64,000 nucleotides of DNA from Candidatus Multivoradales bacterium (GCA_965248925.1 CBDFLE010000006.1:768001-832000); one strand, 5' to 3'. Shown: positions 8,301-34,882, numbered from the stretch's first letter. Made by a program: numbers and translations. The notes: a model not told the origin generated them from the sequence alone.

Positions 8301-10444
8301 GTCGCGCTGCCAAGTGGTCTCGCGCTCCTCCGCCGTGCCCAGAGCTTCGACACGGGAGATTGCTTGGCCGTTGGCGTCGTAGGTGGTCAGGGTCGTGGTG
8401 CCGCCGCCATCGATCTGGCGAGTGGGGCGCAGGGGGTGCGCCGGATCTTCATAGAACAGCCGGCTGTTGGGGCCAGTGCCGCAGCTCGGGCAAGAGCCTT
8501 CGAGCTGCTCCAGGCGAGGCTTGCGGCTCTCGGAGTCGCGACCCAGGGTGTAGGTGGAGATCTCGCCCATCGGGTCGGTGACCGTGGTGACCATGGGCAG
8601 CTGGGGATCGTCGAAGCTCATCGACCAGCGATCGACGGCGCCAGCGTCGTTGAAGTTAGCGGCGCCTTTCCACATTTGCACTACATTGCCAAATGGGTCA
8701 TAGGCCCAGGAGCCCGCGATCCGCTCGCTAGCGTTTGTACCCGCCAGGCTCATTCGGGTCATGTAGCCCGGCAAGGTTGGGTCATCGTAGAGGAAAACCC
8801 AGGCGGTGCCGTCGGGTCGGTCGATGCGGGTGAGGTCTTGGCCGGTGTAGGTGTAGCCCCAAGTGCGGCTGGTGGTGCTGTCGATGCCGGGTGGTCGAGG
8901 ACCATAGGCCGGTGTCGTCGAATTGCATCAGGGTGCCGTCTAGATCGAGCAGGGTCCAGCCGGTCGGGGTCTTGGTCAGGGTGCGGTACTCATCGCTGGG
9001 AATCGTGCGGTCGTAGTCCCCATCCATGTCCAAGTCCGTAAAGCGACGGAAAGTAGCGTAGCGAGTGAGCAGCCAGACGTTGCTGTCGTCGGGGTCGCGA
9101 GCGATTCTCTCGGCGTAATCGTGGCTCCAATAGCGCCCCAACTCGGCGGTGATGCCGGCTGAGCCGGGGTAGGTCGGATGGCCAACGCCTCCCGCGTGGT
9201 AGCGCAGTAGGGCGCCGGGGCCGCTCTGCGGCGGCGAGGCGCCTCCGCCTCCACCACCGGCGCTACCGCCTATTCCGCTGCCACCACCGACGCAAGAGGA
9301 GCATTCTTCATCTTCCGGGCAGCCGCTAGGCGGGGGCGGGGGTGGACAGAGGGGCGACAGGCTGAAGTCGACTACTTGGGTGGTTTCTTTCGGGCAATGG
9401 GGACAGAGGCCGAAGGCACAGGGACAGGCGGTGGCGGTGATCGTGTAGCTGGCCATCAGGTCGCTGCAAGAGCTGGTGATGCCCCAGCTCAAGGTACCGT
9501 GATCTTCCTCGATCACCGCGCCCGAGAGACCGCAGGTGCCCAGGGTACCGCCGCCGCTGGGGGTCACCGTGACGGTGGCGAAGCTGTACAGGAAGCCCGA
9601 GGCGCTGGGATCGTTCTGGTGGTTTCCGGCGAAGTCGATCGGCACTTCGATGGTGATGGCACAGGATTCGATAGCCGGGTCGCAGCCAGCCTCGGGGGTG
9701 AAGGTGGCGCCGGAGATGACCGGCGTGTAGCAGCGGGAGCCGGTGGAGCAGTTCGAGGGTTGGTCAGCGAAGAGTCCTTGTTCGAGGTAAGTGAGGACGC
9801 CGCTGCAGGAGGTGCCGGCTTGGGCGTTGAAAGCGATGACGGCGATAGCGATGTTCACGATCGGACTCCTGAGCTGCATCTGGATACTCTCCTCGCTGGT
9901 TTGGCTCTCCTCGCAGATTTTTAGCTAGCTTCCATTCTCAGTTTCTGTGCCTTTCTCTTTTCTTGGCGATCTTCGCCAGATTCGCTGCTGGATGACGGCG
10001 TTAGCTCTTTGGTTCACGGCGGGGGGCCGATCCCGTGACTAAGAGTTGTCCAGAGAATACACTAAATACAGAGATTAATCTCTTTGGGGTGGTGATTCTC
10101 TAATCTGTACTTCGGCAAGTTGAGTTCAATGCCTCCTCGCGGTTTGGCGCTTGATGGTGTCTGACCACGGCCAGCGGACGGTTTCGCGCCGCGCATCTGA
10201 ACTGCGATTGCCTGACCCCGGCCCTGCCGTAGGCTGAGGCCACGATCCCCCTTCCAAGAAGGCCGGGAGGATCGCCCAACACCCCGCTGCTGGCGTCGCT
10301 ACGCTGGCGGCCAGCACCTCATGGAGCGCTGGGCGCTCCGGTGGGGGAAGGAGTACCAGATGAGTGCAACTAGAACAGAGATCTCAGGACTCTTGGATAG
10401 GTCGCCGCAGCACGGCATGATCATTACTCCGAGCGGCTAGCGCC

Positions 10445-13489: not shown

Positions 13490-14211
13490 ACGACTTGGCA
13501 ATATTTCCTTGTGCCGTGAGCAAGGGCGGGATGGTGGGCACCGCCGCCGACCGCTCCGCGCAGCGGTCGACGGCCAAGCTGAAGCCAAAGGACCGCTTGC
13601 TGCGGCACGGAGCGGCTGGGTTGACGGATACCGAACTGCTAGCAGTCTTGCTGCGTTACCGCTCGGCCGAGGAAGTGGCGGCGGGCCTACTGCCAACCGC
13701 TGGCGGGCTGTGGGAGCTGTTTCGCGCCCAGCGCGAGGCATTGGTTCGCAGTGGCGCCAGCGAGGGGCGAGTGGCTGTTCTGATGGCGGCGGGAGAGCTG
13801 ATGCGGCGGCTGGCTAAGGCCAAGATCAGCCATCGCCGGCTGCTCGATGAGCCCTCCGTTGTTGCTGAGTTCCTGGCCCTGGATGGCAACTACGATCAAG
13901 AGGTTCTCGGTGTGCTTCTGCTCGATGGGAAACTCAGACTGATCGCCAAGTGTGAGATTTTTCGCGGCACAGCGCACCAATCGCCGGCCACGCCAGCACC
14001 GATTCTTCGGGCCGCGATACGGCACAACGCCACTTCATTGATCGCATTTCACAACCACCCTAGTGGCGACCCTGCGCCCAGCGATCACGATCTGCTGTTC
14101 ACTCGCCAGTTGGCCGAGGCGGGTAAGTTGTTGGCAATACCCTTGGTCGATCACCTAATTCTCGGCGAATGTGGAAGTTGGGTTTCGCTGGCGCGGCGCA
14201 ATGCTTATTAG
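13486..14211 (+). CDS. radC: RadC/UPF0758 JAB-domain protein
   Basis: PKDRLLRHGAAGLTDTELLAVLL; HNHPSGDPAPSDHD; VDHLILG. Confidence 0.92.
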   Translation: MNDLAIFPCAVSKGGMVGTAADRSAQRSTAKLKPKDRLLRHGAAGLTDTELLAVLLRYRSAEEVAAGLLPTAGGLWELFRAQREALVRSGASEGRVAVLMAAGELMRRLAKAKISHRRLLDEPSVVAEFLALDGNYDQEVLGVLLLDGKLRLIAKCEIFRGTAHQSPATPAPILRAAIRHNATSLIAFHNHPSGDPAPSDHDLLFTRQLAEAGKLLAIPLVDHLILGECGSWVSLARRNAY

Positions 14212-14238
14212 GCGGACAATTCGGCCTCTGCTGGCCAC

Positions 14239-16014
14239 TCAGCCGGCATAGATCGAGTCGATCACCACTGCCCAATTCTCTTCCACCACCCGACGTTTTA
14301 CTTTCAAGGTCGGGGTCAGCTCGCCAGCCTCCAGCGACAAGGACCGGGGTAGTACCCGAATCACTTTGACTTGTTCGACCTTGGCCAAGTGGCTGTTGAC
14401 CTCGGCCAATCCGGCGGCCAACTGGCGTTCGACTTCGACATGGGTAGGCAATTCCTCGACCTCGACACCGAGCTTGGTCGCCAGATCCGCGGCTCGGTCT
14501 GGGTCGAGGGTCAGCAAGGCGGAGATGAACTTGCGCCCATCGGCGATCAACACGGCGTCGCCCACCAGCTCGATCTGCTTGAGTGCCGACTCGATGTTGT
14601 TGGGGGCGATATTCTTGCCGCCAGAGGTGATCATGATCTCCTTCTTGCGCCCGGTGATGCTCAAGAAACCGTCTGCGAAGACCCCCAGGTCTCCAGAGTG
14701 CAACCAGCCATCCGCATCGAGCACTTCGGCGGTGGCGGCTTCTTCTTTGAGGTAGCCCAGGAACACATTCGGCCCTCGCACCCACACCTCTCCGTCTGCC
14801 GCCAGCCGCACCTCGACTTCGGGCAGTGGGGGGCCGACGGTACCAAAGCGGGTCTTCCCCGGCCGATTCCAGGTGGTCGGCCCGCAACCTTCGGACTGGC
14901 CGTAGACCTCATGGATGACAATCCCCAGACCGGCGAGGAAATGCAGCACTTCAGCGGCGATGGGCGCCGCCCCGGACGCACAAATCCTTGCCTGATCAAG
15001 CCCTAAAGCCCGCTTCACCTTGCGTTGTACCAGGCGCTCGGCAAGGCGTTCTCGGAGCCCTAGCCAAGCGCCCGGATCGAGGCCGCGGTTACGCGCCTCG
15101 GCGGACCGCTGCGCCACCCACATCGCCCAGCTGACCAGCCGGGCCTTGATCCCCCGAGTTCCTGCCATGCGCTCACTCAAGGCGGTTTGCATTCGCTCCC
15201 ACACCCGTGGCACGCCGAATACCACCGTCGGTCGCACCTCTTTCAAGTTGTCCAACATCCGCTCGATCGACTCGGCGTAGTACACCGGATAGCCAGCGTA
15301 GGTCGGTACATGGATCGACAACATCTGCTCGGCGATGTGAGCCAGAGGTAGGTACGACAACGCCCGATCTGTCGCTCTGGCGGCCAGCAAGCCGGCACAA
15401 ATGCGCGAAGTATCGAGCAAATTCGCATGCGAAAGCATCACCCCTTTGGGCGGGCCCGTGGTGCCAGAGGTGTAGATCAGGCTGGCTAGCTGGTCGGGGT
15501 CGAGGGCCGCGCGCCGGGCCTGGAGAAGCTCTTCGGACAACGAGCCCCCATGCTCTAGTAGCTGGCGCCAGGAGATCGCCAGTGGATCGTCGGGAGTCTC
15601 GTCCTCCTCCATCACCACTACCCGACGCAACGCCGGCAGCTGATCTAGGACCTGCTCGACCTTGCGCCATTGCTCGCCGTTCTCGACCACCACCACAGCC
15701 GCCTCGGCGTGGGCTAGAACGTAAGCCACCTGGCTCGGCGCATTGGTGGTGTAGACCCCGGCCGCCGCGCCCCCGGTGGCCATCGCCGCCAAAGCGCCCA
15801 GGGTCCATGGCGGACGATTGAAGCCCAACAAGCCGACACTGGAACCGGGGCCGACGCCAAAGTCGGCGAAGGCTCGTGCCGCCAGCTGCACCTCAGCCTG
15901 GCAACGACGCCAGGATGTCGGCTGCCAGATGCCGCCTTGTTTAACGAAATAGGCAGGATCATCAGGTCGCCGGGCAGCGTGATGGTCTAGGCGGTCAAGG
16001 ATCGTCGTGGTCAT
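14239..16014 (-). CDS. Long-chain fatty acid-CoA ligase (AMP-dependent synthetase)
   Basis: YTSGTTGPPKG, YGQSE, GWLHSGDLG, GGKNIAP, ELTPTLKVKR; start taken at MTTTILD. Confidence 0.92.
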   Translation of the reverse strand: MTTTILDRLDHHAARRPDDPAYFVKQGGIWQPTSWRRCQAEVQLAARAFADFGVGPGSSVGLLGFNRPPWTLGALAAMATGGAAAGVYTTNAPSQVAYVLAHAEAAVVVVENGEQWRKVEQVLDQLPALRRVVVMEEDETPDDPLAISWRQLLEHGGSLSEELLQARRAALDPDQLASLIYTSGTTGPPKGVMLSHANLLDTSRICAGLLAARATDRALSYLPLAHIAEQMLSIHVPTYAGYPVYYAESIERMLDNLKEVRPTVVFGVPRVWERMQTALSERMAGTRGIKARLVSWAMWVAQRSAEARNRGLDPGAWLGLRERLAERLVQRKVKRALGLDQARICASGAAPIAAEVLHFLAGLGIVIHEVYGQSEGCGPTTWNRPGKTRFGTVGPPLPEVEVRLAADGEVWVRGPNVFLGYLKEEAATAEVLDADGWLHSGDLGVFADGFLSITGRKKEIMITSGGKNIAPNNIESALKQIELVGDAVLIADGRKFISALLTLDPDRAADLATKLGVEVEELPTHVEVERQLAAGLAEVNSHLAKVEQVKVIRVLPRSLSLEAGELTPTLKVKRRVVEENWAVVIDSIYAG

Positions 16015-16087
16015 CGGCAAGTCCTCCAGTCTGGCCTCTGGTTGGATAGGCAAACCCGGCGGTAGCCGCGGCACCCGACCCACCAGC

Positions 16088-17221
16088 TCAGCCATACAGT
16101 TCGGAGTAGGTCCGTACTTGGTCGAGAATCTCCTCTTCGCTAGCAAATCGTCGGGGGAATGCCGCGCCAACGGCAGCGGCAATATCACTCAAGTCGTGCT
16201 CACCATTCATTCGCTGCAACACCAGAGCGAGCACCTGGGCATCTGGGGAAAGACGCGGCTGGTACTCGGGGGTGCGCTTTCGCAGCCGCTGCGGCGACAG
16301 GGGCCGGCTCCAAAAGCCGCTTTGATCGAACTTCCGCCGCAGTCCTGTCTCACTCTGCAGCTGGGTCTGCCAGCGCCAAATATAGTCACCCGCGCCGGGC
16401 ACCGCTTGCAAGTCGACCCGCAGCTGGTCGCCGGGGGATAGCGCGACCGGTTCGGGGAAGGGAAAGAAACCCTGGCCGTAGAGTCGCTCCGAGCCCGGCG
16501 CCGAGCTGTAGCCCACGCCTTTGACCAGAGAAGTCTCAAACCACAACGCCAGGCCATGGGCTAGCGCGGCTTGCTCGATCCGCCATTCGAGACTGCCGGC
16601 ACAACCCTGGTGGCGTAGCTGGTAGTAGTCCAGAGTCGCCCAACAAAGCGGCTCAGTGAGGCAAGCCGAAGCGGGCAAATGTACCCGTGTCCAGCTGTTC
16701 AACGCCATCTGCCGGGCAGCGGCCAATTCGAGATCGAACGCCGAGTCGTCCCAGCCAGCGAGCAACTTCGCGAACGGCTCCGGTGCTGACACCACCGACC
16801 CCCAGAGGCGGTCTTGCGCCGGGATCAACACTCCATCCGGGCGCAGGAAACGCTCTTGCGCATCGCTAATCGTCGCCAAATGGCGGCCAAAGCAAGGTAG
16901 CGTGCCGCGCAAGTCGGACAGCACTACGTCCACCTGCTCGCTGGCTTTGAGTGCGGTGGAGAGCCCCTGGATCAGCTCGACCCGATCTGCCAAGCCATTG
17001 CGCGCCACCAGCTGCCGCGCCAACCCGATGATGTCGTTGGGCTCGACCGCAATCACTTTGGCGGCACCGAGACGCGCCGCCACCATGGCGAAGACTCCCG
17101 GACCAGTGCCGATCTCGAGAACCACCGACCCCGGCCGCACCGTTCGCCGCAATGCCTCGATATAGGCTTCCCGGCGAACTTCGTCAGTCAACATATGACC
17201 GAAGTCGCGTAAGTTGTACAT
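16088..17221 (-). CDS. PRMT-like class I SAM methyltransferase with C-terminal winged-helix/RRE-like domain
   Basis: MLTDEVRREAY, VLEIGTGPG, VDVVLSD, FLRPDGVLIP, HGLALWF; tail LQRMNGEHDLSDIAAAV. Confidence 0.8.
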   Translation of the reverse strand: MYNLRDFGHMLTDEVRREAYIEALRRTVRPGSVVLEIGTGPGVFAMVAARLGAAKVIAVEPNDIIGLARQLVARNGLADRVELIQGLSTALKASEQVDVVLSDLRGTLPCFGRHLATISDAQERFLRPDGVLIPAQDRLWGSVVSAPEPFAKLLAGWDDSAFDLELAAARQMALNSWTRVHLPASACLTEPLCWATLDYYQLRHQGCAGSLEWRIEQAALAHGLALWFETSLVKGVGYSSAPGSERLYGQGFFPFPEPVALSPGDQLRVDLQAVPGAGDYIWRWQTQLQSETGLRRKFDQSGFWSRPLSPQRLRKRTPEYQPRLSPDAQVLALVLQRMNGEHDLSDIAAAVGAAFPRRFASEEEILDQVRTYSELYG

Positions 17222-17222
17222 A

Positions 17223-17264
17223 TTCAGTGCATCTCGTTCAATGCATCTCGTTCAGTGCATTTCG
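17223..17264. repeat. Three tandem 14-bp repeats
   Basis: TTCAGTGCATCTCG / TTCAATGCATCTCG / TTCAGTGCATTTCG, directly upstream of the methyltransferase start. Confidence 0.85.
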
Positions 17265-17282
17265 CAGGTTTCGCTCGCCATC

Positions 17283-18254
17283 TTAACGCGACTCCAAATC
17301 GCTCTCGATCGCCACCGCGGCCGCCGCCAAACGGTCGAAACCACTGGGGTAGATCAACCGACGACAGAGGACCTGCCGCACCAAGTGCGACAGTCGCAGC
17401 AAGCGCTGCCGGCCCAGGCCCACCGCTTCGACTACGTAGGGGGTAAAGGAGTGGCGCAGCAGCTCGCGTAGCGCCGCCGCCGGCCGCAAGGTTTCGATCC
17501 GCGGTAGGTCGAGATCGGCCGAGGAACGCCGGTCGACAATGTAAAGAGCGTCGAGGACCGCGGAGTCGGCCGCGAAAAGACCCAGATCGTCGGCGGAGCC
17601 CACATCGACCCGGCGCTTGTCGTGCAGGGAGTGGACACTCGGTAGATGCCGCCAGGCGCCGCAGAAATGGGCCGCTTGATCAGGCCACATGCGCATCTGA
17701 GGGTAACCGGCGTGCCCCAGGAAGCTGCCCCGCAACTCCTCCACCGCCAGGATGTCGTCGCTCATCAGGCGGTGCCCTCGGAGCAGAAGGGCTGCTGCCA
17801 AACCAGTCTTACCCCCCGCGTTGCCCGACAAGAACCCCACAACCCGGTCGCCGATCCGCACCGCCGAGGCGTGCAGGGCCAAGACCCCGCGACGCTCAAG
17901 GACATAGCTCAAGACCGCGCCGAGAAAGTGAATCTCGAGTTCCGCCACCTCCCCTTCGGGATGCGGCAGGCACTCGATGAGTTTGTCCTCGACGCGAAAG
18001 TCAGCGACCCGCGGAATGCGCATCCACTGCACCTGGCCAGCAGCGAATAGCTGGCACCAAGGCTGACCATCTCGACGCTGGTAGGGGCTCGAATAGAGTA
18101 GCTCGCCAAGGTCAGCAGAATCTGGCGCAACCCCCTTTAGGACAGTGAATTGAAGGTCAGCCCGTAGGCCCCCGCATTCCGTCAAGCGGTTGGCAAATGG
18201 GAATTCGGTTTGAACCCGCAAGCCGTAAACGCGATAGGTCGGCACAGCGATCAA
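17283..18254 (-). CDS. HPr kinase-like protein (lasso-cluster kinase family)
   Basis: YRVYGLRV, LALHASAV, P-loop GNAGGKTG, LMSDDI. Confidence 0.85.
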   Translation of the reverse strand: MIAVPTYRVYGLRVQTEFPFANRLTECGGLRADLQFTVLKGVAPDSADLGELLYSSPYQRRDGQPWCQLFAAGQVQWMRIPRVADFRVEDKLIECLPHPEGEVAELEIHFLGAVLSYVLERRGVLALHASAVRIGDRVVGFLSGNAGGKTGLAAALLLRGHRLMSDDILAVEELRGSFLGHAGYPQMRMWPDQAAHFCGAWRHLPSVHSLHDKRRVDVGSADDLGLFAADSAVLDALYIVDRRSSADLDLPRIETLRPAAALRELLRHSFTPYVVEAVGLGRQRLLRLSHLVRQVLCRRLIYPSGFDRLAAAAVAIESDLESR

Positions 18255-19465
18255 CCAGTAACCGGCGATTCGACCAAAAGCGCTCGCCTAAGCAGGTCGT
18301 CGACCAAGGCGCCGCAGTCATCCTCCAAGCTCTTTCGATCCACCTCGAAGTCTGCCGCCAGCTGGTCTAGAGCCACTTCGAACCGACCATGCTCCAAGAT
18401 CCCGGCCCATAGACTGGCCGCCACTCCTCGCAGCTCATAGCAGCAGCCATCTCCAGCGGCGACAATTGTGGTCTCGCTATCGGGGGACACCGCGAGGACC
18501 TTGGCGGCAGGCCGTAGGGGACCCGCGGCACATCCCGACGATCGGTGAATCCGCGGTCGGCGTCCAGCAGCCGGCCAGCAGCCGTTTTTCGAACAAAACC
18601 GTGGCGGCGCCATCCGCCAAGCGTTCTCAGTCACTTTCCGTACCGAGTTCCACAGCTGACGCTCGGGTTCGTTCCAGGGAAAGCAAAAAGGCACCGGGCT
18701 GCCCAGCCAATAACGCCCCGCGCTATCTCGCGCCTGCCAATGTTGATGCCAGGCCAGGGCCTCACCACCGAGGTCGACCAGCGGCAGATCTCGCGCCGCC
18801 AGGCAAGCGGCAACCCGCGGCTCCGCCTCCCGGCAGGCAGTCCGGAAGTCGGGGTGGGATACCAGATGGGCAAAGATCACCTGCGGTGCCGCCAGAGTGG
18901 CCAGGAAACTGTTGAAACAAGCGCCACTGATCGCGCAATCGTCGACCACCACGCAGGGGCCTTCACCGTCGAGCTCTGAGGCCGCCACCAATTGATCAGC
19001 CCGCAATCCCAGAGCACTGGCCAACAAACCGGTCACCACCAGACCGCCACGGGGTACGGCAACAAATCTGGCCCGCGCCAGCTGATCGCCGAGACGAATT
19101 CTGAGCTGCTCGGCAAGACGTTGGCAGTCGTTCAGAACGTCCGCGAAATCGAAGTAGAGAAAGTGCCGGCAAGCCGAGTCCAATTGCCCGGCTTGAGCTT
19201 CGATACCAGCTAGCGCGGCCCTATCAAAGCGGCCAAATGCAGCGATTCTCGGCGTTGGAGTCAGCTTGGCGGCCCAGTGGGTTGCCGGCAACAACGCCCA
19301 CTCGGGACTGTGGGCAATCGCCTCTAACAGACCATCCAAAGCAGCCGCCGGCGCGCCTAGGCCCAAGGTACCACCGTAGGCGGTCAACGCCTCAGCCGAT
19401 AGCTCCAGGGCAACACAGGTCCAACCGGCCGATGAAGCCGGTGAAGCGGTACCAGACTGGATCAT
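18251..19465 (-). CDS. Type I phosphoribosyltransferase domain fused to a C-terminal PqqD/RRE
   Basis: FVAVPRGGL and PRPP-binding loop VVVDDCAISG; C-terminal YELRGVAASLW...LAADFEVDRKSLEDDCGALVDDLLRRALL. Confidence 0.8.
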   Translation of the reverse strand: MIQSGTASPASSAGWTCVALELSAEALTAYGGTLGLGAPAAALDGLLEAIAHSPEWALLPATHWAAKLTPTPRIAAFGRFDRAALAGIEAQAGQLDSACRHFLYFDFADVLNDCQRLAEQLRIRLGDQLARARFVAVPRGGLVVTGLLASALGLRADQLVAASELDGEGPCVVVDDCAISGACFNSFLATLAAPQVIFAHLVSHPDFRTACREAEPRVAACLAARDLPLVDLGGEALAWHQHWQARDSAGRYWLGSPVPFCFPWNEPERQLWNSVRKVTENAWRMAPPRFCSKNGCWPAAGRRPRIHRSSGCAAGPLRPAAKVLAVSPDSETTIVAAGDGCCYELRGVAASLWAGILEHGRFEVALDQLAADFEVDRKSLEDDCGALVDDLLRRALLVESPVTG

Positions 19466-19497
19466 CTCGGTACTCGATCCGGCGCCACGACGCGGAC

Positions 19498-19665
19498 TCA
19501 AACTCCCATCGTACCGCCGAGCGGGAAGTCCTCGATGCCACCCATCGGCCCCTGGGTGATCTCGGTGATCGCGCCCCACTCGACGAGTTCTGGCGCGCGA
19601 TATTGGCGCTTCTTGCGTACCGATTCTCCACCATCTAGGCGCTTCGGTGTTTTCTCACAAGTCAT
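19498..19665 (-). CDS. Lasso peptide precursor (55 aa); predicted core GPMGGIEDFPLGGTMGV
   Basis: RBS AAGGAG; leader motif YRAPELVEWGAITEIT (YxxPxLxxxGxxxxxT); Thr at -2, Gly1, Glu7/Asp8. Confidence 0.92.
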   Translation of the reverse strand: MTCEKTPKRLDGGESVRKKRQYRAPELVEWGAITEITQGPMGGIEDFPLGGTMGV

Positions 19666-19683
19666 CGGACTCTCCTTCAATTG

Positions 19684-21651
19684 TCAAGCCGCCTCAGCAC
19701 TGCCAGAGGAGTTCTCACTCGCGACTGGCGCAAGTCCACTCCTCAGCCGGCGAGGCTCAGCTGTTTGTCCAGTCAAGAGCGAATCGTAGTGGCTGCGCAG
19801 CCACAGCTCGAAGAGGATCGGGTTGACCACCGCCCGCAGGGCCGCCGAAGGCCATTGTTTGCGGTACTGCTCGTAGGATACCCGCAGCCGCGCGCCGTCG
19901 ATGTAGCCCAGCTCCTCCGCCAAGGGGGCCTGCAGCAGGCTGCGAACCTGCATGGCCTCCATATCGCGCAGGCCTAGATCGACGAACCTGCCGAGCCGGG
20001 TCTTGTGAGCACGCTGGCGAACGCTCTCCGGTAGATAGCCAAGCATGGCGTTGCGCAACAGAGGTTTGGTCGCGGCCACGGAAATCAACTCGCGAGACGG
20101 AATCGAGAGCACGAACTCGACCAAGCGCCGATCCAGATAGGGATGGCGAACATCGAGCGGTTGCCGCCGCGGCCGTCGTTCATACCACTGAGTGGCGTAG
20201 GGGTGAGCGCCAAATCCGACCGCAGTGTCGTAAACGTCTTGCCGCCCGTGCTCGAGAAATCGCAGCCCACTAGGCGTTCCTTCGAGACGCTGCTCGAGGT
20301 TGGTGCGGCGAGCAAAATCAGGAGCTATCCAGGCTGGTAGCGAGCCGCCGTCGGAGCGACCGGCCAGCCGCCGCAGGAAACGATCTAGAGTTGGCGGCAG
20401 CAAAGGCCGCAGCATCCAGCCGTAGAACGCTCGCGACAGCGGCAGTTTCACCCGCCGGGCATGTTGAGCCAGCTCCCGGCCAGCCGACCCATCGCGTCGC
20501 CGCAAGCGATCGGCGTAGACTCGCGGACTACCACAGAGCAACTCATCACCACCATGGCCGGTCAGGAGGATATCGATACCCCGCTCGCGGAGACGATCGG
20601 TCAGCTCCTCGTAGCATCCTTCCCAAACCGGCAAGAAAGGACTCTCGAGGCTGGGCGAGAAGGCACTGTCACCAGCCGCCAAGTACCAACGTCGCTCAGC
20701 CTGAATCTCGACACTCTGCAGACCAAGATCACTGGTCATGGTACGGATGTAGGGACTCTCATCACAATCGAGCCGTGTGCCGAAAACGAACGAGCCAGCA
20801 ACTAACCCTGGGCTGCCGTCAACTCCCACCACCCGCCGAGCAACGGCCGCCACTGAGCAGGAATCCAGCCCACCACTCATGGCGATTCCGACTTGCCCGG
20901 CTGAGCCCACCAAGCGAGCGGCCACTGACTGTTCCAGCAGGCTGGCGAAATGTTCGGCGTACTCCTCGCTCTTCTGGTAGGTGACGCGATGCTCGGGATC
21001 GATATCCCAATAGCGCTCAACCCGCACCCCTTCGTGGCTGGCGATCAGGCGATGTCCCGGGGGAAGGGCGCGGACCTGGCGAAAGAAGGTGCGGTCTTTG
21101 GCCGGCATGTGGCCGCAGAGGAAGTCCGCCACCGCAAGATCATCAAGGTCATTCGAGACCGCCGGATGGCTGAGCAGCTGCTGCGCCTCGGAAGCGAAAC
21201 AAATCAGCGGCCCGAGATGGGTGAAACAAAGCCCGCGGACCCCAAGCTGATCCCGAGCCGCGAAGAGCCGCTGCTGCTCTCCATCCCAAATAGCAAAAAC
21301 AAAATCGCCCAGCAACACCTCGACACAGTCGATACCCCAGCGGCGATAGGCCGCCAGAATGAGTTCGGCATGGGTTGCCTCTCTCCCACCGAGTTCTTCC
21401 GCGAGTGCCCGGCAAAGTTCTTCGCCATTGTCGATTCGCGCATCGGCCACCAGATGCAGGTCACCACGCCGCAACGGCTTGAGAGGCTGCTGGTGGCCTG
21501 AAGTTGCACTGATCGCGAAACCTCCGCGCTCGAAAGAGCAGTAGCCGATTCCACCCACCGAGCGGTTGGGGACGGACTCGGCCATCACCTGCAAGTAGTC
21601 ATCACCCTCGGGCAGACCAGCAAAGTCCACCAGACCAGCCAGCGCTCCCAT
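19684..21651 (-). CDS. Lasso cyclase (asparagine synthetase-like, C protein)
   Basis: No N-terminal Cys; RDQLGVR, SGGLDS, TGHGGDE, HPYLDRRLVEF; TGATG-coupled to B2. Confidence 0.92.
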   Translation of the reverse strand: MGALAGLVDFAGLPEGDDYLQVMAESVPNRSVGGIGYCSFERGGFAISATSGHQQPLKPLRRGDLHLVADARIDNGEELCRALAEELGGREATHAELILAAYRRWGIDCVEVLLGDFVFAIWDGEQQRLFAARDQLGVRGLCFTHLGPLICFASEAQQLLSHPAVSNDLDDLAVADFLCGHMPAKDRTFFRQVRALPPGHRLIASHEGVRVERYWDIDPEHRVTYQKSEEYAEHFASLLEQSVAARLVGSAGQVGIAMSGGLDSCSVAAVARRVVGVDGSPGLVAGSFVFGTRLDCDESPYIRTMTSDLGLQSVEIQAERRWYLAAGDSAFSPSLESPFLPVWEGCYEELTDRLRERGIDILLTGHGGDELLCGSPRVYADRLRRRDGSAGRELAQHARRVKLPLSRAFYGWMLRPLLPPTLDRFLRRLAGRSDGGSLPAWIAPDFARRTNLEQRLEGTPSGLRFLEHGRQDVYDTAVGFGAHPYATQWYERRPRRQPLDVRHPYLDRRLVEFVLSIPSRELISVAATKPLLRNAMLGYLPESVRQRAHKTRLGRFVDLGLRDMEAMQVRSLLQAPLAEELGYIDGARLRVSYEQYRKQWPSAALRAVVNPILFELWLRSHYDSLLTGQTAEPRRLRSGLAPVASENSSGSAEAA

Positions 21652-22088
21652 CAGGCATTCGCCTCCCGAACGGCGGCATTCTCCAGCGGCGGATAATCTC
21701 GCTCGACAGTGCCAGACTCGGCAACGGGCCGACCTTCGACCTCCACCCAGGCGTGCGCCTCGAGCTGCTGTCCAACGGTGCGAGCGCCGATCCGCAACAC
21801 CGAGTCGACACCACGGCGAGCCAACAAGTAGCGCAGAGTCACCGAGCGTTCCAGACAACGCGCCGGCAGTAGATGATGCCGGCTGGCGACGCCCACGGCC
21901 CAAGCTGTCAGGGGGATAGGTGCCGCGGGGCCTATCCCCGAGGCGCCGCGCACCACGGGCTCCAGTCGCGCCAGCGAAACACCGCAACGCAATGCCACGC
22001 TAAACACTCCCAAGCCAATCCATGCCGAAGCGAGAGACCGCAGCTCGCGACGACCGAGCGAGGAAAGTTTGTAGAGATTAGTCAGCAT
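21651..22088 (-). CDS. Lasso leader peptidase B2 (transglutaminase-like)
   Basis: CLERS...LRIG...AHAWVE catalytic motifs. Confidence 0.92.
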   Translation of the reverse strand: MLTNLYKLSSLGRRELRSLASAWIGLGVFSVALRCGVSLARLEPVVRGASGIGPAAPIPLTAWAVGVASRHHLLPARCLERSVTLRYLLARRGVDSVLRIGARTVGQQLEAHAWVEVEGRPVAESGTVERDYPPLENAAVREANA

Positions 22089-22458
22089 CGAGGGTCACCA
22101 GGCTCTGGCCCGCGAGTCGGTCGACAAAAATCATCAAATCGTGCTTCAAGCGTTCAGGTTCGACCTCGAACTCATCGAGTAAACTTCTATAGGTTGCTTC
22201 TAGCTCTCCGTTATCCGCCAACAACTGCCACATCCTGGTGCCAACATCGTCGAGCCCGAAATAACGGCCGGTCTCGAGCTGCAAGAGCACCGCCTCACCT
22301 CCCAGGTCACGGAAGAGCACTTGCTCGGAAATCCTCACGCAACCCGCCAGTTTGCCTGACAACCCTGCCGCGGAAGACCCGCTTTCTGAATATGCAAAAC
22401 CCACACCAGACCCCCGTCTGAGATTTTCCGCCCGTATCGCGGATCCTCCGCCCTTCAC
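22078..22458 (-). CDS. Lasso RRE B1 (PqqD family); start uncertain
   Basis: EAVLLQLETGRYFGLDDVGTRMWQLL...EFEVEPERLKHDL. Confidence 0.9.
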   Translation of the reverse strand: MKGGGSAIRAENLRRGSGVGFAYSESGSSAAGLSGKLAGCVRISEQVLFRDLGGEAVLLQLETGRYFGLDDVGTRMWQLLADNGELEATYRSLLDEFEVEPERLKHDLMIFVDRLAGQSLVTLDAD

Positions 22459-22562
22459 AACATACTATTACTTGGATTCTGATAGATAGCTTACCACTTA
22501 CCCAGAGATCTCTACCACGGCAAATCTCCCCTGCCGGAAGTCCTTCCCCTGCCGACCAACGA

Positions 22563-22603
22563 AAGAAAGCCCACCCAGCCGAGATGGCAGAGCGGGCTTT
22601 CTT
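22563..22603 (-). terminator. Probable intrinsic terminator of the SdrD-like gene
   Basis: AAGAAAGCCC...GGGCTTTCTT inverted repeat with a T-rich run on the minus strand. Confidence 0.65.
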
Positions 22604-22661
22604 GGCTATTCAAGAGAGTCAGTTTCTACTTCGCTCTCCGCAACAGAGATCATCGACTGGC

Positions 22662-25600
22662 TTACGGAATAACCAGCCAAACGTCGTAGTTGCCGCTACC
22701 GTCGTAGGACTTCACCAACCAAGCGTAGTAGCCCTCGGCACCGTTGTAGGTCACGGTCTCGTTCGAGCTGTAGCTGGTCCCCGAGGCGACCACTTGCCAG
22801 CTGGAGCCATTCCAGCGATGCAGGTAGAGGTCTAAGTCCGCCGAACCCGGGCCTTCGAGCACTCCTTGATGACTGCCGGCGACCGAGTAGTAGTAGTTGC
22901 CGTCCGGCTGCCAATGGTACTCGCCAGTGCTACCCAGGTAGCCAGCGTAGTGATCGCCGGTGTGGCCATCGCCACCACCGCCACCACTACCGGTGTCGTC
23001 ACAGCTCCACAGCACCTTCACCCACCGCAGGCAGAAGGCCTCATTGGAGCCGCCGTAGTTGTTCGACACCCGGAAGCGCACCTGAGTGTTGGCCGAGATA
23101 TGCCCGCTGATGTCGAGAGTGTGGATCTCGGTCACCGAGCCGGAGATGCCGGTGATGACCTCCAAGACTGTCCACGTAGCTCCACCGTTGTCCGACACCT
23201 CGACGGTGACCGCGTCGTCAGAATCGACCCCGGCGAAGGTGTCGAACTTGAACTCCAAAGTCGCGACCAGAGCGCCCGAAAGGTCGACCTCACGGGCCGC
23301 CGATGGCTCGGTGCCGGTATCCGGGGCATCCTTGAGGAACATGAAGCCGTTGTCGACCCAGACGTTGCCGGTCGCCGGACCAGAACCCGCGACATCGTTC
23401 TCGATCCACGGACCGGTCCAGTCATTGCCACCGATGTTGCCGCTGAAGTCGTTCGAATCGAACGAATCCTTGACATCACCCGGTTCGCAATCACCCGACG
23501 GCGGCTCGGAGCCACCGTCGCCCGGGCAGACCACCAAGGAGGAGATTGCCCCTGAGCCGGTCAGCTTCACCTTCAGTGTGCTCACCCCGTTGGTGCCCAG
23601 CACCAGCTTCTGCACGCTATTGTTGCCCAGGGTCTGCGCCGCCGCGCCACCGATCAGGCCACCATCCGCGTCGAAAGCCTCGAGGGTGCAGTTGGTTTGC
23701 TCATCGATATCCACCAGGCTCACCGACTCGATCAGCACCGGGTCGTCGAAGGTGAAGATGAACTCACCGCCCGAGGCGTTGTCGTCTGGATCGCTACCAT
23801 CGTTGCCATCCTCAGACAGGATCAGCAGGTTACCTAGGCCAATGGCGTTCTCCCCCGCCTGGCCAGCCTCGCCACCGGCGCCGATACCCGGACCACCGAA
23901 GGTTTGGTTGGGAGTGCCGAGATCGAAGTCGCCTCCAGTCGGGTCCGAAGAATCGAAGATCATCGCCGGCGTCGAAGCGTTGTCAGTGGTGACGTGGATG
24001 CCCATTGCGGCGAGCTCGTCGTCGATCACCTGCCCCGCGGAGAACTGCGCGAAGTCAATGGTCAGGCACTCGGCGGATTCGCAATCGACAATATCGATGT
24101 TGATGTCACCATCACCCGAAGAAGGCAACGAGGCCCCCGTCGGCTGGCTGCTAACAATGTAATCGAGCCAACCGGAGCCACCAAAGCGAGCGTTCTTGCC
24201 GTTGGCACCTTCGCCTACCTGGAAGGCTACGCCGCGACGCTCGATATGCACAATCGCTCCAGCCAAATCACCGGTGCCGGTGAGGGTGCCAACGAAATCG
24301 GTGTAGAACACCCAAGTCGAGGGATCGACTGGACCACCGTTGGCGACGTAGGCTGCCGAGTCGAGTTCCAGCTTCGGACTACCCGCCGGTGCCACCGAGG
24401 TTAGACCGTTGAAGAGAACATCGACGACGAAGCCAGCGCTCGGATTCGACGCCGAGCGTACTGTGCCGCTCAACCTCGCCGTGCGCATGCCATCGTCGAA
24501 CATCCAGCTACCCTGATCGGGCTCGAAGACGAAGTCGGTGCCGATCCCGGGCAGCGAAATGGCGTGGCCATTGCTGGAACCAAACTCGTCAGCCACCGCC
24601 CCCTCGGCACAGATCTCGGTCGGATCGACCGGGCCCTGATCCTCGGGGCAGAGCGGACCGCCCTGTTTGCTGGCTCCGGCGAGCACCTCGAAATCACCGC
24701 TGATCAGCCCCGGGAAAATGGGCTCCGAGCAACTGGTATGGATCGAGGTGTGTAGCACGCCGTCAACGAAGATCCTTATCTCGGTGCCAACCGTACCGGA
24801 GAAGCCCGGCGTACCTGATCCAGGACCGGTGATCTCGAAAGTGCCACCCGGTTGGACGGTACCTACGAATAGGTCGTCATCGTCAGGACCGCGCTTGCCC
24901 TCGACTCGGATCTCGGCAGAAGCCGAGCCGTTGTACTGGAAGGTCAAGCGGCTGACCTTACCCGAGCAGGGTCCACACACCGCATATCCAAAATCGACAT
25001 CGGTGCGATCCTCACCCGTGCCCAGCACCAAGCTGGCCGAGTTGATCGTCGTCAAGCCGTCGAGGTCGAAGGTCGGCTCATAACCCGCAGGCAAAGTCGA
25101 AGCATCGACCTGCGCTGTGTAGGCACCGCCCAACAAACCGCCGAAGGTGTAGCCGCCATCACCCGAAGTGGTGGCCGTGGCAATGACCACTCCGCCGCCG
25201 TCAAGCACGTTAACGGTGACACCGTTCAAGCCGACTTCACCGGCATCCTGCACACCGTCATTGTCGACGTCGTCCCACACTCGATCACCGATGGAACCCA
25301 ACTGGACATAGCCAAAATCGACATCGTCACGGTCTTGCGACACAGCCAAGGTGACGGTAGCGATGTTGGCGCTACCGAGGCCGTCGAGATCGAAGGTCTG
25401 AGTGTGATCCGCCGGCAGGGTCGAAGCATCGACCTCCACCATGTAGGTACCGGTAAGTAGGTCGCCGAAAGAGTAGCCGCCATCACCGGCGGTGACCGTC
25501 GAGGTGATCAACGCGCCACCCGAGTCGCGCAGGTTGACGGTGACACCGTTCAAACCCGGTTCAACGAGATCCTGCACCCCGTTGCCATTGGTGTCGAACC

Positions 25601-28370
25601 AGACCCGGTCGCCCAACGAGCCCAGGCGGACGTAGCCAAAGTCGACATCGTCGCGCACCTCGCTCGCGGCCAAGGCGGCGTCGGCGGTGTTGGCGGTGGC
25701 CGCCCCGTCGAGATCGAAGGTCTGACTGTAGCCCGCTGGCAGGGTCGAAGGATCGACATCCACCTTGAAGGTATCGGCACCCAGGAACTCGAAGAGGTAC
25801 ATGCCGTCACCAGCCGTGGTGGTGGTACCGATCACGTTGCCGCCTGAGTCGCGCAGGGTCACGGTGACGCCGTTCAGACCTGGCTCACCCGAATCCTGCA
25901 CCCCGTCGCCGTTGAAGTCGTCCCACACTCGGTCGCCGAGCTGGCCGTCGCCCCGATAGCCGAAGTCCACCAGATCGTTCTCCTCTTCCTCTGCCAACGT
26001 CAGCGTCGCCACATTGGGAGTGCTGATGTCGTCGAAATCGAAGGTCGGATCGTCGATGCCCGGCGGCAGCGTGCCGTCATCCACCGTCACCACGTAGGCA
26101 CAGTCGACTGTCGGCTCGCGCAGCTGGATCAGCCCCGCGGGAATGGTGTCCGGCGCACCCACCGGACCACCGCCACCGCCGTCTGCCTCGCAGTTCGCCG
26201 CCGGCAGATTGGCGAAGAGAAAGAAGCCGTCGACTCCCATTACCGTCGCCGTCACCGTCGTCCGCACCACCTCGGCGATGCCATCGCCATCGATGTCGCC
26301 TTCGAGGGTCACGGTCACTCCGTTCAAGCCCGCTTCGCCTGACTCTTGGATCCCGCTCGCGTCACGGTCCTCCCACACCAAGTCGCCGATCGAGCCCAGG
26401 AATTCGGCAACGTAGCCAAAATCAGCATCGACAAAAGCGTCGCCAGAGGCCAGAGTCACGTCCAGGGGCTGGTTAGCCGTGGTCAGGATCAGACCGTCGG
26501 GCAAGGTGCTGGCGTCCACCTCGACCCGATACAAGCCCGCCAGCAGGCCGCTGAACTCGTAGAAACCATCATCGTCGGTGGTCTCGGAGGCGAAGAAGAC
26601 GTCGTCCAAGGTGCCGAACATAGCGTCCGGGCCGGCCTCGGTAAGGTTGACTTCGACTCCCTCCAAGCCTGCGTCCGGGTTCTCGTTCTGCAAGCCGTCG
26701 GCACTGTCGTCATACCAGACGTAGTCACCGATCGACGCCGTGCCGGCGTAACCAAAATCGTAGGTCAGCACATTGGCGTTGACCACTGTGTCGGTGATCG
26801 CGTCGCCAGTAGTGCTCACCAGGCCGTCCAGAGGCTCGCCCAGATCGAAGTTCGAAGGGTCGACTTCGACCTCGAAAGTACCGGCATCCACCTCAAAGGA
26901 GTAGTTGCCGTTGATGTCCGTGGTGGTGGTGGCCAGCGCACTGCCAAGAGCGCCCAGCAAGTTGACCTGCACGCCCTCGATCCCCGGCTCGCCAGGGTCC
27001 TGAGTGCCGCTACCGTCGATGTCGGCGAACACCGTGTCGCCGACCAGGAAGAGGCGCAGAATCGGGCCACACGGATCGCCCATCTCATCGACACAGATCA
27101 CCCGGTTAAAGATCCGCAGCGCGTTCAAGTTCTGCAGGTCGACGCCGTTGATCGCGATGGCGTAGGTGCCAGCCGGGATGCTGCCGGTCATGTGGTCTTC
27201 TGCGGCCGACACCGTCGATACCACGAAGCGCTCCCACTCCTGGTTGCCCGAGGGGTTCTCGTTGGCGAATATCGGGCCATTGGGGAACATCAGGTCGTAA
27301 CGCACCGAGGGAGGACGCACCAAGAAGATGCCGTTGCCAGCCCCATCGTTGTCGTCCGGTGGATCACCGGTCGCTCCGCCAAAGCCAATCGCTACCCCTT
27401 CTGCCATGGTATCGATGGTCGCGAACGGCGGCACGAACGGAGCGTTAGGGGTGTTTGGATCGTCAGTGTCCTGGTTGTTGATGCCATCGAAATCGCCGCG
27501 GTCGAAGTCACCGTCGAAAAGCTCCAACTCGGGCAGCGCCGCCGGCATCTCGAAGTAGAAGATGAACGAGCCGTCATAGGTCGTCGGTGTGGCCGCCGGG
27601 AAGCCCGGGTATACGGTCTGCACATCGGTCAGCGACGGGCCAAAGTTAGCGATATAGGAGAAAGGCTGCGCCGTGGGAGAGATCAGCGTCTGACCATCGG
27701 TGCGAATCTTGAAGGCGTTGACCACCGGCACCGACGGCATCAGGTTGACGATCCGCAGCCGGTAGAAGAAGTTGCCACTCGGCGACTGCGCCACCGCGGT
27801 GGTGTTGATTGCGAAGTTGGCCCAATCGTCGTTCGGCAACAGCGAAGAAGCGATCGAAGGCTGACCCGGCAACAACTCGATGATGGTCGCGCCACTGCCA
27901 TCGCCGAGCGGATCGGCGAGTAGGGTGTACTCAAAGGGAGTCGGTACCGCGCCGCTGTCCCAACGGCTCTCGCCAGTCGACGCCTGGATCTCACCCGCAT
28001 CACCATCGAAAATACCGATGGAAAAAGTCGTGGTCCCAGCCGGCACTGCCAATTGCAGCTCCAAGTCCGGGTCGCTCAGGGTTACGAAGTCCGAAGCTAC
28101 CGCCAGGAAACGGCCATCGGTCGGATCACAGGTCGGCAGGCAGGTGAAACCAGGCATCCGGGTTGGCAGCCTGAAGGCCGGTGCGTCCGCAGGTTCCATC
28201 TGCTCAATTTTGAGGCTGTCGAGGAACGCCAGTGATTCTGCCTGCATCTGTCCTTCGAGGCTACGTGGACCTCCGGCGCGCTGCCCCAGAACGAATCCTG
28301 GAAGCAGCAGCGTAACCATCAGACCGACGACCAAGAAGATCTTCGAGCGGGTTGCTGCCTTCGTAATCAT
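22662..28370 (-). CDS. Giant secreted/surface protein with about six SdrD B-like repeats and a C-terminal PPC-like domain
   Basis: Signal peptide; repeats IGDxVWxDxxxDGxQDxGExGLNGVTV...DFGY; IHTSCSEPI module; C-terminal QPDGNYY...DLDLYLHRWNG. Confidence 0.85.
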   Translation of the reverse strand: MITKAATRSKIFLVVGLMVTLLLPGFVLGQRAGGPRSLEGQMQAESLAFLDSLKIEQMEPADAPAFRLPTRMPGFTCLPTCDPTDGRFLAVASDFVTLSDPDLELQLAVPAGTTTFSIGIFDGDAGEIQASTGESRWDSGAVPTPFEYTLLADPLGDGSGATIIELLPGQPSIASSLLPNDDWANFAINTTAVAQSPSGNFFYRLRIVNLMPSVPVVNAFKIRTDGQTLISPTAQPFSYIANFGPSLTDVQTVYPGFPAATPTTYDGSFIFYFEMPAALPELELFDGDFDRGDFDGINNQDTDDPNTPNAPFVPPFATIDTMAEGVAIGFGGATGDPPDDNDGAGNGIFLVRPPSVRYDLMFPNGPIFANENPSGNQEWERFVVSTVSAAEDHMTGSIPAGTYAIAINGVDLQNLNALRIFNRVICVDEMGDPCGPILRLFLVGDTVFADIDGSGTQDPGEPGIEGVQVNLLGALGSALATTTTDINGNYSFEVDAGTFEVEVDPSNFDLGEPLDGLVSTTGDAITDTVVNANVLTYDFGYAGTASIGDYVWYDDSADGLQNENPDAGLEGVEVNLTEAGPDAMFGTLDDVFFASETTDDDGFYEFSGLLAGLYRVEVDASTLPDGLILTTANQPLDVTLASGDAFVDADFGYVAEFLGSIGDLVWEDRDASGIQESGEAGLNGVTVTLEGDIDGDGIAEVVRTTVTATVMGVDGFFLFANLPAANCEADGGGGGPVGAPDTIPAGLIQLREPTVDCAYVVTVDDGTLPPGIDDPTFDFDDISTPNVATLTLAEEEENDLVDFGYRGDGQLGDRVWDDFNGDGVQDSGEPGLNGVTVTLRDSGGNVIGTTTTAGDGMYLFEFLGADTFKVDVDPSTLPAGYSQTFDLDGAATANTADAALAASEVRDDVDFGYVRLGSLGDRVWFDTNGNGVQDLVEPGLNGVTVNLRDSGGALITSTVTAGDGGYSFGDLLTGTYMVEVDASTLPADHTQTFDLDGLGSANIATVTLAVSQDRDDVDFGYVQLGSIGDRVWDDVDNDGVQDAGEVGLNGVTVNVLDGGGVVIATATTSGDGGYTFGGLLGGAYTAQVDASTLPAGYEPTFDLDGLTTINSASLVLGTGEDRTDVDFGYAVCGPCSGKVSRLTFQYNGSASAEIRVEGKRGPDDDDLFVGTVQPGGTFEITGPGSGTPGFSGTVGTEIRIFVDGVLHTSIHTSCSEPIFPGLISGDFEVLAGASKQGGPLCPEDQGPVDPTEICAEGAVADEFGSSNGHAISLPGIGTDFVFEPDQGSWMFDDGMRTARLSGTVRSASNPSAGFVVDVLFNGLTSVAPAGSPKLELDSAAYVANGGPVDPSTWVFYTDFVGTLTGTGDLAGAIVHIERRGVAFQVGEGANGKNARFGGSGWLDYIVSSQPTGASLPSSGDGDINIDIVDCESAECLTIDFAQFSAGQVIDDELAAMGIHVTTDNASTPAMIFDSSDPTGGDFDLGTPNQTFGGPGIGAGGEAGQAGENAIGLGNLLILSEDGNDGSDPDDNASGGEFIFTFDDPVLIESVSLVDIDEQTNCTLEAFDADGGLIGGAAAQTLGNNSVQKLVLGTNGVSTLKVKLTGSGAISSLVVCPGDGGSEPPSGDCEPGDVKDSFDSNDFSGNIGGNDWTGPWIENDVAGSGPATGNVWVDNGFMFLKDAPDTGTEPSAAREVDLSGALVATLEFKFDTFAGVDSDDAVTVEVSDNGGATWTVLEVITGISGSVTEIHTLDISGHISANTQVRFRVSNNYGGSNEAFCLRWVKVLWSCDDTGSGGGGGDGHTGDHYAGYLGSTGEYHWQPDGNYYYSVAGSHQGVLEGPGSADLDLYLHRWNGSSWQVVASGTSYSSNETVTYNGAEGYYAWLVKSYDGSGNYDVWLVIP

Positions 28371-34774: not shown

Positions 34775-34882
34775 GATCTCTACCTCCTGGTGGGGTCGTC
34801 AAGCCTGGAGAGGCGCGGTAGCTGGAAGGTGAATTTACACCAGCCGCGAGAGGCGATCCAGCCTTAGTAGCTCCGCAGAGAA

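Follow-up and report, generated by a model that had tools for sequence, protein, structure and literature searches.

Lasso peptides are prized scaffolds, and their known decorations are few: the available text of a 2026 review (PMC13352647) lists phosphorylation, glycosylation, acetylation, acylation, citrullination, methylation or aspartimide formation, prenylation, halogenation and cross-links. Here we describe a lasso peptide gene cluster at positions 16088-22458 of a 64,000-nucleotide stretch of Candidatus Multivoradales bacterium DNA (GCA_965248925.1, CBDFLE010000006.1:768001-832000), which we call the window, and its closest described relatives are clusters that encode a peptide kinase. 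According to the accessible portions of three reports, known lasso kinases target a C-terminal Ser or Ser3 and have no phosphoribosyltransferase (PRT) partner (PMC8498205, PMC9266682, PMC10368454). Specifically, PadeK of the paeninodin cluster, ThcoK and SyanK act on the linear precursor and phosphorylate its C-terminal Ser, and the reviews consulted describe for them, in the parts available, neither a partner of phosphoribosyltransferase (PRTase) fold nor a methyltransferase of protein arginine methyltransferase (PRMT) fold. In the Bsf cluster of Bradymonas sediminis, as far as the accessible text goes, the kinase BsfK modifies Ser3 within the ring; its His, P-loop and Asp-Asp catalytic set was shown to be important by mutagenesis, and the enzyme is strongly accelerated by BsfB1, a plain, unfused protein that consists of a RiPP (ribosomally synthesized peptide with post-translational modifications) recognition element, or RRE (PMC10368454). 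In the pseudomycoidin pathway (PsmK and PsmN), the kinase acts first and the second enzyme, an NTP_transf_5 homologue, puts a sugar-type group, a hexose, on the phosphate, again according to partial text. Lasso methylation dependent on S-adenosylmethionine (SAM) is likewise known from enzymes of the StspM/lassomycin type and from LihM, which acts in aspartimide formation; these are O-methyltransferases of the C-terminal carboxylate or a ring Asp, and the available review text on them mentions neither a PRMT fold nor an obligatory kinase partner.

Seven closely packed genes, all on the minus strand, make up the 6.4-kb window cluster in the order B1, B2, C, precursor, PRT-RRE, HprK-like kinase and PRMT-fold methyltransferase, PRT-RRE being an enzyme of PRTase fold fused to an RRE. 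The locus is a genuine lasso peptide gene cluster, and every one of the co-oriented genes named in an initial annotation of this DNA, the PRTase-RRE, kinase and methyltransferase included, was found. With the published parts of the paeninodin, ThcoK and SyanK systems it shares B1, B2 and C as well as an HprK-like kinase carrying identical His, P-loop Lys and Asp-Asp residues, and with the Bsf cluster, as partially documented, accessory enzymes and a phosphosite that is predicted to be internal. However, the window peptide ends in Val and its conserved hydroxyl is internal (Thr14), its leader carries Thr at position -2 where the Bsf leader has Ile, one of its RREs is also fused to an enzyme domain, and it has neither the NTP_transf_5 gene nor the ABC exporter reported for the Bsf cluster (PMC10368454). 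On balance, we favour the reading of a class II-type lasso operon (B1-B2-C-A, A being the precursor) with three tailoring enzymes that would act on the tail around Thr14-Met15, and the product is probably a lasso peptide with decorations so far undescribed. The initial annotation knew of no characterised cluster with this combination. Nor did we find one in the literature, although the PRT-RRE gene may figure as an unnamed open reading frame (ORF) in a published drawing. Full-text literature searches returned no publication on the PRT-RRE family or the methyltransferase family in lasso clusters; the term 'ribosyl' is absent from the accessible text of the 2026 JACS lasso review (PMC13352647), as is 'phosphoribosyl' from that of a paper about linear polyphosphorylated peptides published in Nat Commun in 2026.

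The core lasso enzymes are recognizable by their domains. B1 (22078-22458), a discrete RRE of the PqqD family, matches Pfam PqqD over residues 55-121 (1.9e-14), and its translation may in fact begin downstream of the GTG at 22458. B2 (21651-22088), the transglutaminase-like lasso leader peptidase, overlaps B1 by 11 nt and matches Transglut_core3 (2.5e-19). C (19684-21651), the lasso cyclase or Asn-synthetase-like lactam synthetase, matches Asn_synthase (5.5e-37) and GATase_7 (3.3e-21), and its ATG (21651-21649) and the B2 stop codon have one base in common (TGATG). All three proteins exceed the cut-offs of their Pfam models, whereas only B2 exceeds that of its NCBIfam model (lasso_biosyn_B2, 71.5 bits against 33): B1 stays under the cut-off of lasso_PqqD_Bac (1.4e-14), and the top model for C, lass_lactam_cya (1.1e-97), gives 328 bits, below its cut-off of 525.

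The precursor gene A (19498-19665) encodes 55 residues, comprised of a 38-residue leader and the 17-residue core GPMGGIEDFPLGGTMGV; its ATG at 19665 was chosen on the basis that it stands behind GAAGGAG. The product exceeds the cut-off of the NCBIfam model lasso_leader_L3 (21.3 against 19 bits), shows the leader motif YRAPEL with Thr at -2, and has homologous counterparts at the same position in related loci. The core contains neither Arg nor Cys, and with Val at its C-terminus the C-terminal Ser acceptor, a paeninodin-type trait, is lacking here. Two core acids, Glu7 and Asp8, could close the ring, and the initial annotation had left the choice between them open. Since the window-like precursor subclass keeps Asp at position 8, an acid conserved in the family, the ring is probably Gly1-Asp8, and Gly1-Glu7 is less likely.

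PRT-RRE (18251-19465, 404 residues) starts at an ATG 33 nt past the precursor stop; a longer ORF starting with GTG would overlap the precursor. The protein consists of a PRTase domain (about residues 100-245), subdomains that flank it on the N- and C-terminal sides, and an RRE (about residues 324-399). The AlphaFold2 (AF2) model, built with 100 homologues, reached a pLDDT (predicted local distance difference test) of 92. In Foldseek searches, residues ~100-245 matched XGPRT, HPRT and OPRT (E ~6e-6, target template-modelling (TM) score ~0.6), with XGPRT chains as the best; at least 209 PDB chains were hit at E<=0.001, and the best among the matches listed are nearly all PRTases. The last 80 residues form an RRE of three strands and three helices that matches Pfam PqqD (1.2e-6) and, in a PDB profile search, lies closest to the lasso B1 proteins TbiB1 (1.1e-14) and TfuB1 (1.6e-8). 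The annotation as a PRTase-RRE is borne out by the AF2/Foldseek fold match and not by Pfam. In a Protein Atlas look-up, the protein fell to its family's own clusters, labelled 'PqqD family' (0.85-0.86, mark 0.9), which shows that public labels overlook the PRT domain.

Conservation within the family centres on the predicted active site. Across 100 sequences (~35-40% identity), P138, G140, G141, D175, D176, G181, F262 and W264 are invariant, and R139, C177, A178, R183, E266 and P267 are nearly so. These residues make up the motifs P138-R139-G140-G141 and D175-D176-C-A-x-[S/T]-G181, as well as a family-specific F-P-W-x-E-P motif outside the PRT core. Judging by eye, we equate P-R-G-G with the pyrophosphate (PPi) loop, D-D with the acidic pair and S/T-G with the 5'-phosphate loop. 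XGPRT, HPRT and OPRT have in common with PRT-RRE the core fold, P-R-G-G after the first strand and D-D-x-x-x-[S/T]-G. In contrast to these enzymes, with which it has no significant sequence match, PRT-RRE contains extra N-terminal and beta-rich subdomains with the invariant F-P-W-x-E-P, and it is fused to an RRE, which makes a peptide, in place of a base, its presumed acceptor.

The kinase gene (17283-18254) begins with a TTG that overlaps the PRT-RRE stop codon. The protein had been annotated as HPr-like; its profile scores are weak (Pfam Hpr_kinase_C, 7e-4, under the cut-off; NCBIfam HprK_rel_A, 1e-5), yet the motif residues of lasso kinases are conserved. Specifically, H128, G148, K149, D167 and K213 are invariant in 69 sequences and D166 is nearly so; H128, G148, K149 and D166/D167 correspond to the catalytic motif of BsfK, and T150 follows the P-loop Lys149 in the window enzyme. 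A quick maximum-likelihood tree, from which high-scoring segment pairs shorter than 190 residues were left out, split 68 PRT-linked kinases and that of the window from 15 methyltransferase-linked ones by a branch with a support of 96 in the Shimodaira-Hasegawa-like approximate likelihood ratio test (SH-aLRT). The window enzyme is an HprK-like peptide kinase of the PRT-RRE-associated clade. A complex prediction of PRT-RRE with the kinase scored 0.00 against a mark of 0.32 and counts neither way.

The SAM-dependent methyltransferase (16088-17221) was modelled by AF2 with a pLDDT of 93.5. The model matches PRMT6, PRMT2, PRMT1 and CARM1 with the beta-barrel included (Foldseek E ~1e-27, TM 0.67-0.85), and the family profile matches PRMT2 at 2.8e-44. 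The whole-domain fold, the SAM-binding motif I and an N-terminal Arg are common to this enzyme and the type I PRMTs. Its double-E and THW loops are altered, however, residues 326-376 form an extra C-terminal three-helix unit, and the core peptide is free of Arg. In the alignment with PRMT2 (5fub), S-E-W-M-G corresponds to S-D-L-R-G, so that the first Glu of the double-E loop is replaced by Asp, followed by a conserved Arg; the column of the second Glu is not conserved and holds Gly in the window, and I/L-Y-G takes the place of T-H-W in the family. With its arginine-binding loops unconserved and no Arg in the core peptide, the protein is therefore an enzyme of PRMT fold but not a PRMT. The term PRMT-like in the initial annotation holds for the fold, then, and fails for the arginine-binding loops and for an Arg in the core. 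The conserved residues R105, R122, R124 and H222 suggest an anionic feature in the substrate.

The spacer between the kinase and methyltransferase genes contains a 14-nt unit repeated three times (17223-17264; Tandem Repeats Finder score 70, 89% matches). Read along the coding strand, every unit has the sequence GAG-ATG-CAY-TGA and thus forms a mini-ORF of start, His and stop. The last stop lies 2 nt ahead of the methyltransferase ATG, which itself has no obvious Shine-Dalgarno sequence.

PRT-RRE and its own kinase clade are a widespread lasso-linked module. A full search of 1.84 billion representatives with a hidden Markov model (HMM) gave 423 PRT-RRE proteins at E<=1e-30, nearly all of ~390-420 residues and each representing a cluster at 50% identity. 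By pattern scans, species-representative genomes yielded 101 relatives and metagenome contigs 131; 80 from either source were retained as loci L001-L160, 149 of them unique once identical proteins had been removed. The record titles include Gemmatimonadota, Acidobacteriota, Cyanobacteria, Chloroflexota, Halomonadaceae, Opitutia, Spirochaetes, Actinomycetota, Rhodothermales and two methanogen metagenome-assembled genomes (MAGs). A seeming rarity of the family, suggested by a word-indexed search that gave only 14 relatives, was corrected by the pattern scans and the full HMM search. Of the 106 unique loci whose downstream sequence reaches 1200 nt or more, 93 have a kinase, directly downstream and on the same strand in 74, and 13 have none. 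C is encoded in 70 of the 81 unique loci whose upstream sequence covers 2600 nt or more (directly upstream in 54). The 33 unique loci of at least 15 kb hold C in 30 cases, a kinase in 31, a separate B1 in at least 18 and B2 in at least 13, the last two counts being tblastn lower bounds. When the loci of this length are not deduplicated (38), homologues of an ABC exporter are present in 19 and of NTP_transf_5 in 11. These architectures were borne out when ten loci were annotated with Pfam; in Litchfieldella (L053), for example, the order is four precursors, B1, B2, NTP_transf_5, ABC, C, precursor, PRT-RRE and kinase. In the phylum of the window, PRT-RRE occurs in 2 of 401 sampled genomes, the window's own included.

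Some loci deviate from this pattern. In L005 (9106-11167), L006, L021, L035 and L158, which are mostly cyanobacterial, a kinase-like gene lies directly upstream of a PRT-like gene, and no lasso cyclase gene is present within 15-21 kb in L005, L006 or L158. The L005 protein has no PqqD domain by Pfam, and its neighbor is a CHAT-domain protein. Such loci may represent a lasso-free variant of the pair. Additionally, exopolysaccharide genes often flank the PRT-RRE lasso loci (L010, 4689-5618; L001, 8363-9943; L053, 12259-15593; L071, 13313-14113), including those for exosortase EpsH, Bac_transf sugar transferases and UDP-glucose dehydrogenase.

The methyltransferase belongs to a kinase-bearing module of its own. 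Its family has 146 matches in the indexed database and is found in 43 of the 401 sampled genomes of the phylum (E<=1e-30). We examined ~20 kb around each of 20 members from this phylum. Sixteen loci encode C together with an HprK-like kinase whose identity to that of the window is 25-32%, mostly with B1/B2, so that every methyltransferase locus with a lasso cyclase also holds a kinase; the four loci without lasso genes represent a contig end, a 3-kb contig or a partial relative. The gene order by Pfam is B1-B2-C-A-kinase-methyltransferase-ABC, often with NTP_transf_5, and PRT-RRE occurs in none of the 20. Among the 149 unique PRT-RRE loci, a close methyltransferase is encoded only in L010, L055 and L078, and distant ones only in L027 (identical to L114) and L109. 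The L010 enzyme, from the cyanobacterium Nodosilinea, is 42% identical over the full length and its locus runs PRT-RRE, kinase, methyltransferase, then ABC and NTP_transf_5, while those of L055 and L078, both Actinomycetota MAGs, are 39-40% identical to that of the window. The methyltransferase adjoins the kinase in all three and in the window. The presence of all three enzymes together is rare, being observed in the window and 3 of the 149 loci.

Homologues of each tailoring gene do stand beside lasso genes, which is the co-occurrence that the initial annotation had proposed to check. Its three-enzyme set proved rare, but it is not a single set; it is the union of a PRT-RRE plus kinase module with a methyltransferase plus kinase module. 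In a quick tree, the methyltransferases of the triple clusters are scattered over the family (four label changes for four rows), and the triple was therefore probably assembled more than once.

To locate the residues that the tailoring enzymes may address, we compared the precursors. A leader HMM retrieved 103 unique precursors with Thr at -2, and four more matches without this Thr were discarded; 86 of the 103 are encoded immediately upstream of PRT-RRE. In these 86, the ring acid occupies position 8 in 36 cases and position 9 in 48, and two have none. A G-[S/T] pair with its Ser/Thr at core positions 12-16 is present in 53 of the 86 (exactly at 14 in 45); in 500 trials with shuffled cores, the number averaged 17.9 and did not exceed 32. 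The conserved position-14 hydroxyl is that of Thr14 in the window. If the Thr(-2) rule sets the cleavage site, many of the 86 predicted cores start with Thr (22), Val (17) or Asn (9), unlike the usual Gly, Ala, Ser or Cys of lasso cores.

A second pattern accompanies the methyltransferase. A Met past the ring acid occurs in 13 of 18 methyltransferase-linked cores versus 14 of 103 from PRT-RRE loci without a close methyltransferase, L027 and L109 being entered as methyltransferase-negative, and Met makes up 6.4% versus 0.8% of residues. In the four triple clusters, Met stands directly or within two residues after the hydroxyl (T-M-G, S-M-A, S-M-G and S-M-G); the one adjoining Thr14 in the window is Met15. 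Together with the kinase in all 16 cyclase-bearing loci, the Met pattern suggests that the methyltransferase reads phospho-Ser/Thr, and that it may methylate the phosphate or the nearby Met.

From the genes and the conserved residues we infer a pathway whose chemical steps, order and acceptor atoms are all predictions. The leader, with its YxxPxL motif and Thr(-2), would be gripped by the RREs, namely discrete B1 and the one fused to the PRTase-fold enzyme. The HprK-like kinase would phosphorylate Thr14, and PRT-RRE, with its predicted intact ribose-5-phosphate/pyrophosphate site, would add a second group to Thr14 or to its phosphate, with 5-phosphoribosyl pyrophosphate (PRPP) or a similar molecule as the donor. 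The PRMT-fold methyltransferase would then methylate beside the phospho-site, on the phosphate or the neighboring Met. B2 would cut the leader off after Gln(-1), and C would close the Gly1-Asp8 isopeptide ring. Pseudomycoidin is the best analogy for the way in which the kinase and PRT-RRE may act together, although in place of its NTP_transf_5 homologue the window has a type I PRTase fold with an RRE. A more specific version, which we put forward as a tentative possibility, is that PRT-RRE carries out leader-guided phosphoribosylation of Thr14 or its phosphate, followed by methylation of the phosphate or formation of a Met sulfonium, to give a bulky charged plug.

Several observations weigh against the favoured reading. 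The PRT part is only marginally related by sequence to known PRTases in the PDB profile search (OPRT, E 0.028), and Pfam PF00156 (Pribosyltran) has no match to it at E<=0.01; weak, sub-cut-off matches to PF24390 (PRTase-CE) were seen on two PRT-RRE homologues only. PRT-fold proteins that merely bind ligands exist, such as PyrR and PurR, and an intact site is therefore no proof of catalysis. As for the target residues, 33 of the 86 precursors lack G-[S/T] at 12-16, several of these having Thr14 without the Gly or a G-S motif after a longer loop, and 5 of the 18 methyltransferase-linked cores have no tail Met. The Fisher value of the Met comparison (9e-7) overstates its significance because related cores are not independent. 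The three-helix unit of the methyltransferase was considered as a hidden RRE and rejected, since hhalign against the RRE alignment of PRT-RRE found no similarity (probability 0.6%). Moreover, an exporter is absent from the window, whereas 19 of the 38 long loci have one.

Instead of an enzyme, PRT-RRE could be a leader-binding adaptor for its kinase. Its PRT domain would then only bind a nucleotide, PRPP or pyrophosphate in a cofactor or regulatory role, and the peptide made would be phosphorylated and methylated but ribose-free. RRE-assisted phosphorylation is indeed documented in the available text on BsfK/BsfB1 (PMC10368454). The kinase and PRT-RRE genes are translationally coupled, moreover, and the kinases form a partner-specific clade. 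The regulators PyrR and PurR and the missing PF00156 match agree with such a role as well. An adaptor, however, has no apparent need for a PPi loop, acidic pair, 5'-phosphate loop and F-P-W-x-E-P motif that are invariant or nearly so in 100 sequences, and a second plain RRE would be redundant beside the discrete B1 encoded here and in at least 18 of the 33 long loci. We regard the adaptor role as doubtful, though deserving serious weight. Conversion of Thr14 to dehydrobutyrine by the kinase and PRT-RRE, through phosphorylation and then elimination as in some lanthipeptide pathways, is the explanation to which we give least credence. It would account for a Ser/Thr conserved at one position, and a dehydroalanine-containing lasso peptide is cited, by title, in the 2026 review (PMC13352647), but no lyase role is known for a PRTase fold whose ribose-phosphate site is intact, a lyase-like motif was not found, and the window core lacks a Cys that could make use of a dehydro residue.

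The part of the methyltransferase can be questioned separately, as it may be a mere neighbor that acts on a cellular protein or RNA, leaving the peptide to the kinase and PRT-RRE. Relatives are publicly annotated as 'L11 methyltransferase' or 'PRMT1', 143 of the 149 unique PRT-RRE loci lack the enzyme, and no RRE was detected in it. Yet, of the 20 members taken from the phylum, 16 are located within kinase-type lasso clusters, the remaining four being the contig-end, short-contig or partial cases; the gene is kinase-adjacent in the window, L010, L055 and L078; Met enrichment in the cores tracks it; and its Arg-binding loops are lost. We consider an unconnected role improbable, and modification of the tail around Thr14-Met15 by all three enzymes is the reading that we retain.

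This work defines two uncharacterised families, PRT-RRE and the PRMT-fold methyltransferase, that are tied by neighbourhood to lasso clusters and a peptide kinase, and each now has a predicted target residue open to mass spectrometry. The window cluster is compact and one of the few with all three enzymes, and it is therefore a convenient single construct for both families. It could also show whether a post-translational group serves as a lasso plug. If phosphoribosylation does take place, a 5-phosphoribosyl group on a peptide would be a modification new to ribosomal natural products, and a large charged group at position 14 could act, in Gly-rich tails with few bulky side chains, as the steric plug that holds the lasso in its threaded form.

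Around the cluster, neither an exporter nor an isopeptidase was found among the ORFs scanned at 5322-37730 or by whole-genome tblastn, in agreement with the initial annotation; the closest lasso-type ABC homologue in the genome lies more than 1 Mb away, and the only NTP_transf_5 gene (G000:C6:3860690-3861379, 3.86 Mb on the contig) ~3 Mb away. A terminator-like hairpin on the minus strand (22571-22620; consensus match only), 3' of the upstream SdrD_B-repeat gene, marks the 5' boundary of the lasso operon, and a sigma-70 promoter scan of 13500-23500 returned no sites and was uninformative. On the other side, a FadD11-like acyl-CoA synthetase gene (14239-16014, minus strand; AMP-binding, 3.9e-72) starts 74 nt downstream of the methyltransferase, with no terminator-like site predicted between them. 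It was considered as a fourth tailoring enzyme and set aside, a homologue being present in only 1 of the 160 PRT-RRE loci and on the opposite strand; it is probably outside the cluster, and co-transcription with the methyltransferase is possible.

The gene directly upstream of the operon (22662-28517) encodes a 1951-residue secreted protein with six SdrD_B repeats. Elsewhere in the window, an RHS-repeat protein is encoded at 5322-8774, and a 4'-phosphopantetheinyl transferase, a type II thioesterase and a Ser/Thr protein kinase follow in a row at 33249-36382. Two ORF pairs of equal lengths (271 and 463 residues, overlapping on opposite strands) at 3888-5339 and 40896-42347, 37008 nt apart, are probably two copies of one mobile element. 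A second Asn-synthetase-like gene, whose product is 28% identical to C, is located ~61 kb ahead of the window start (G000:C6:705339-707027).

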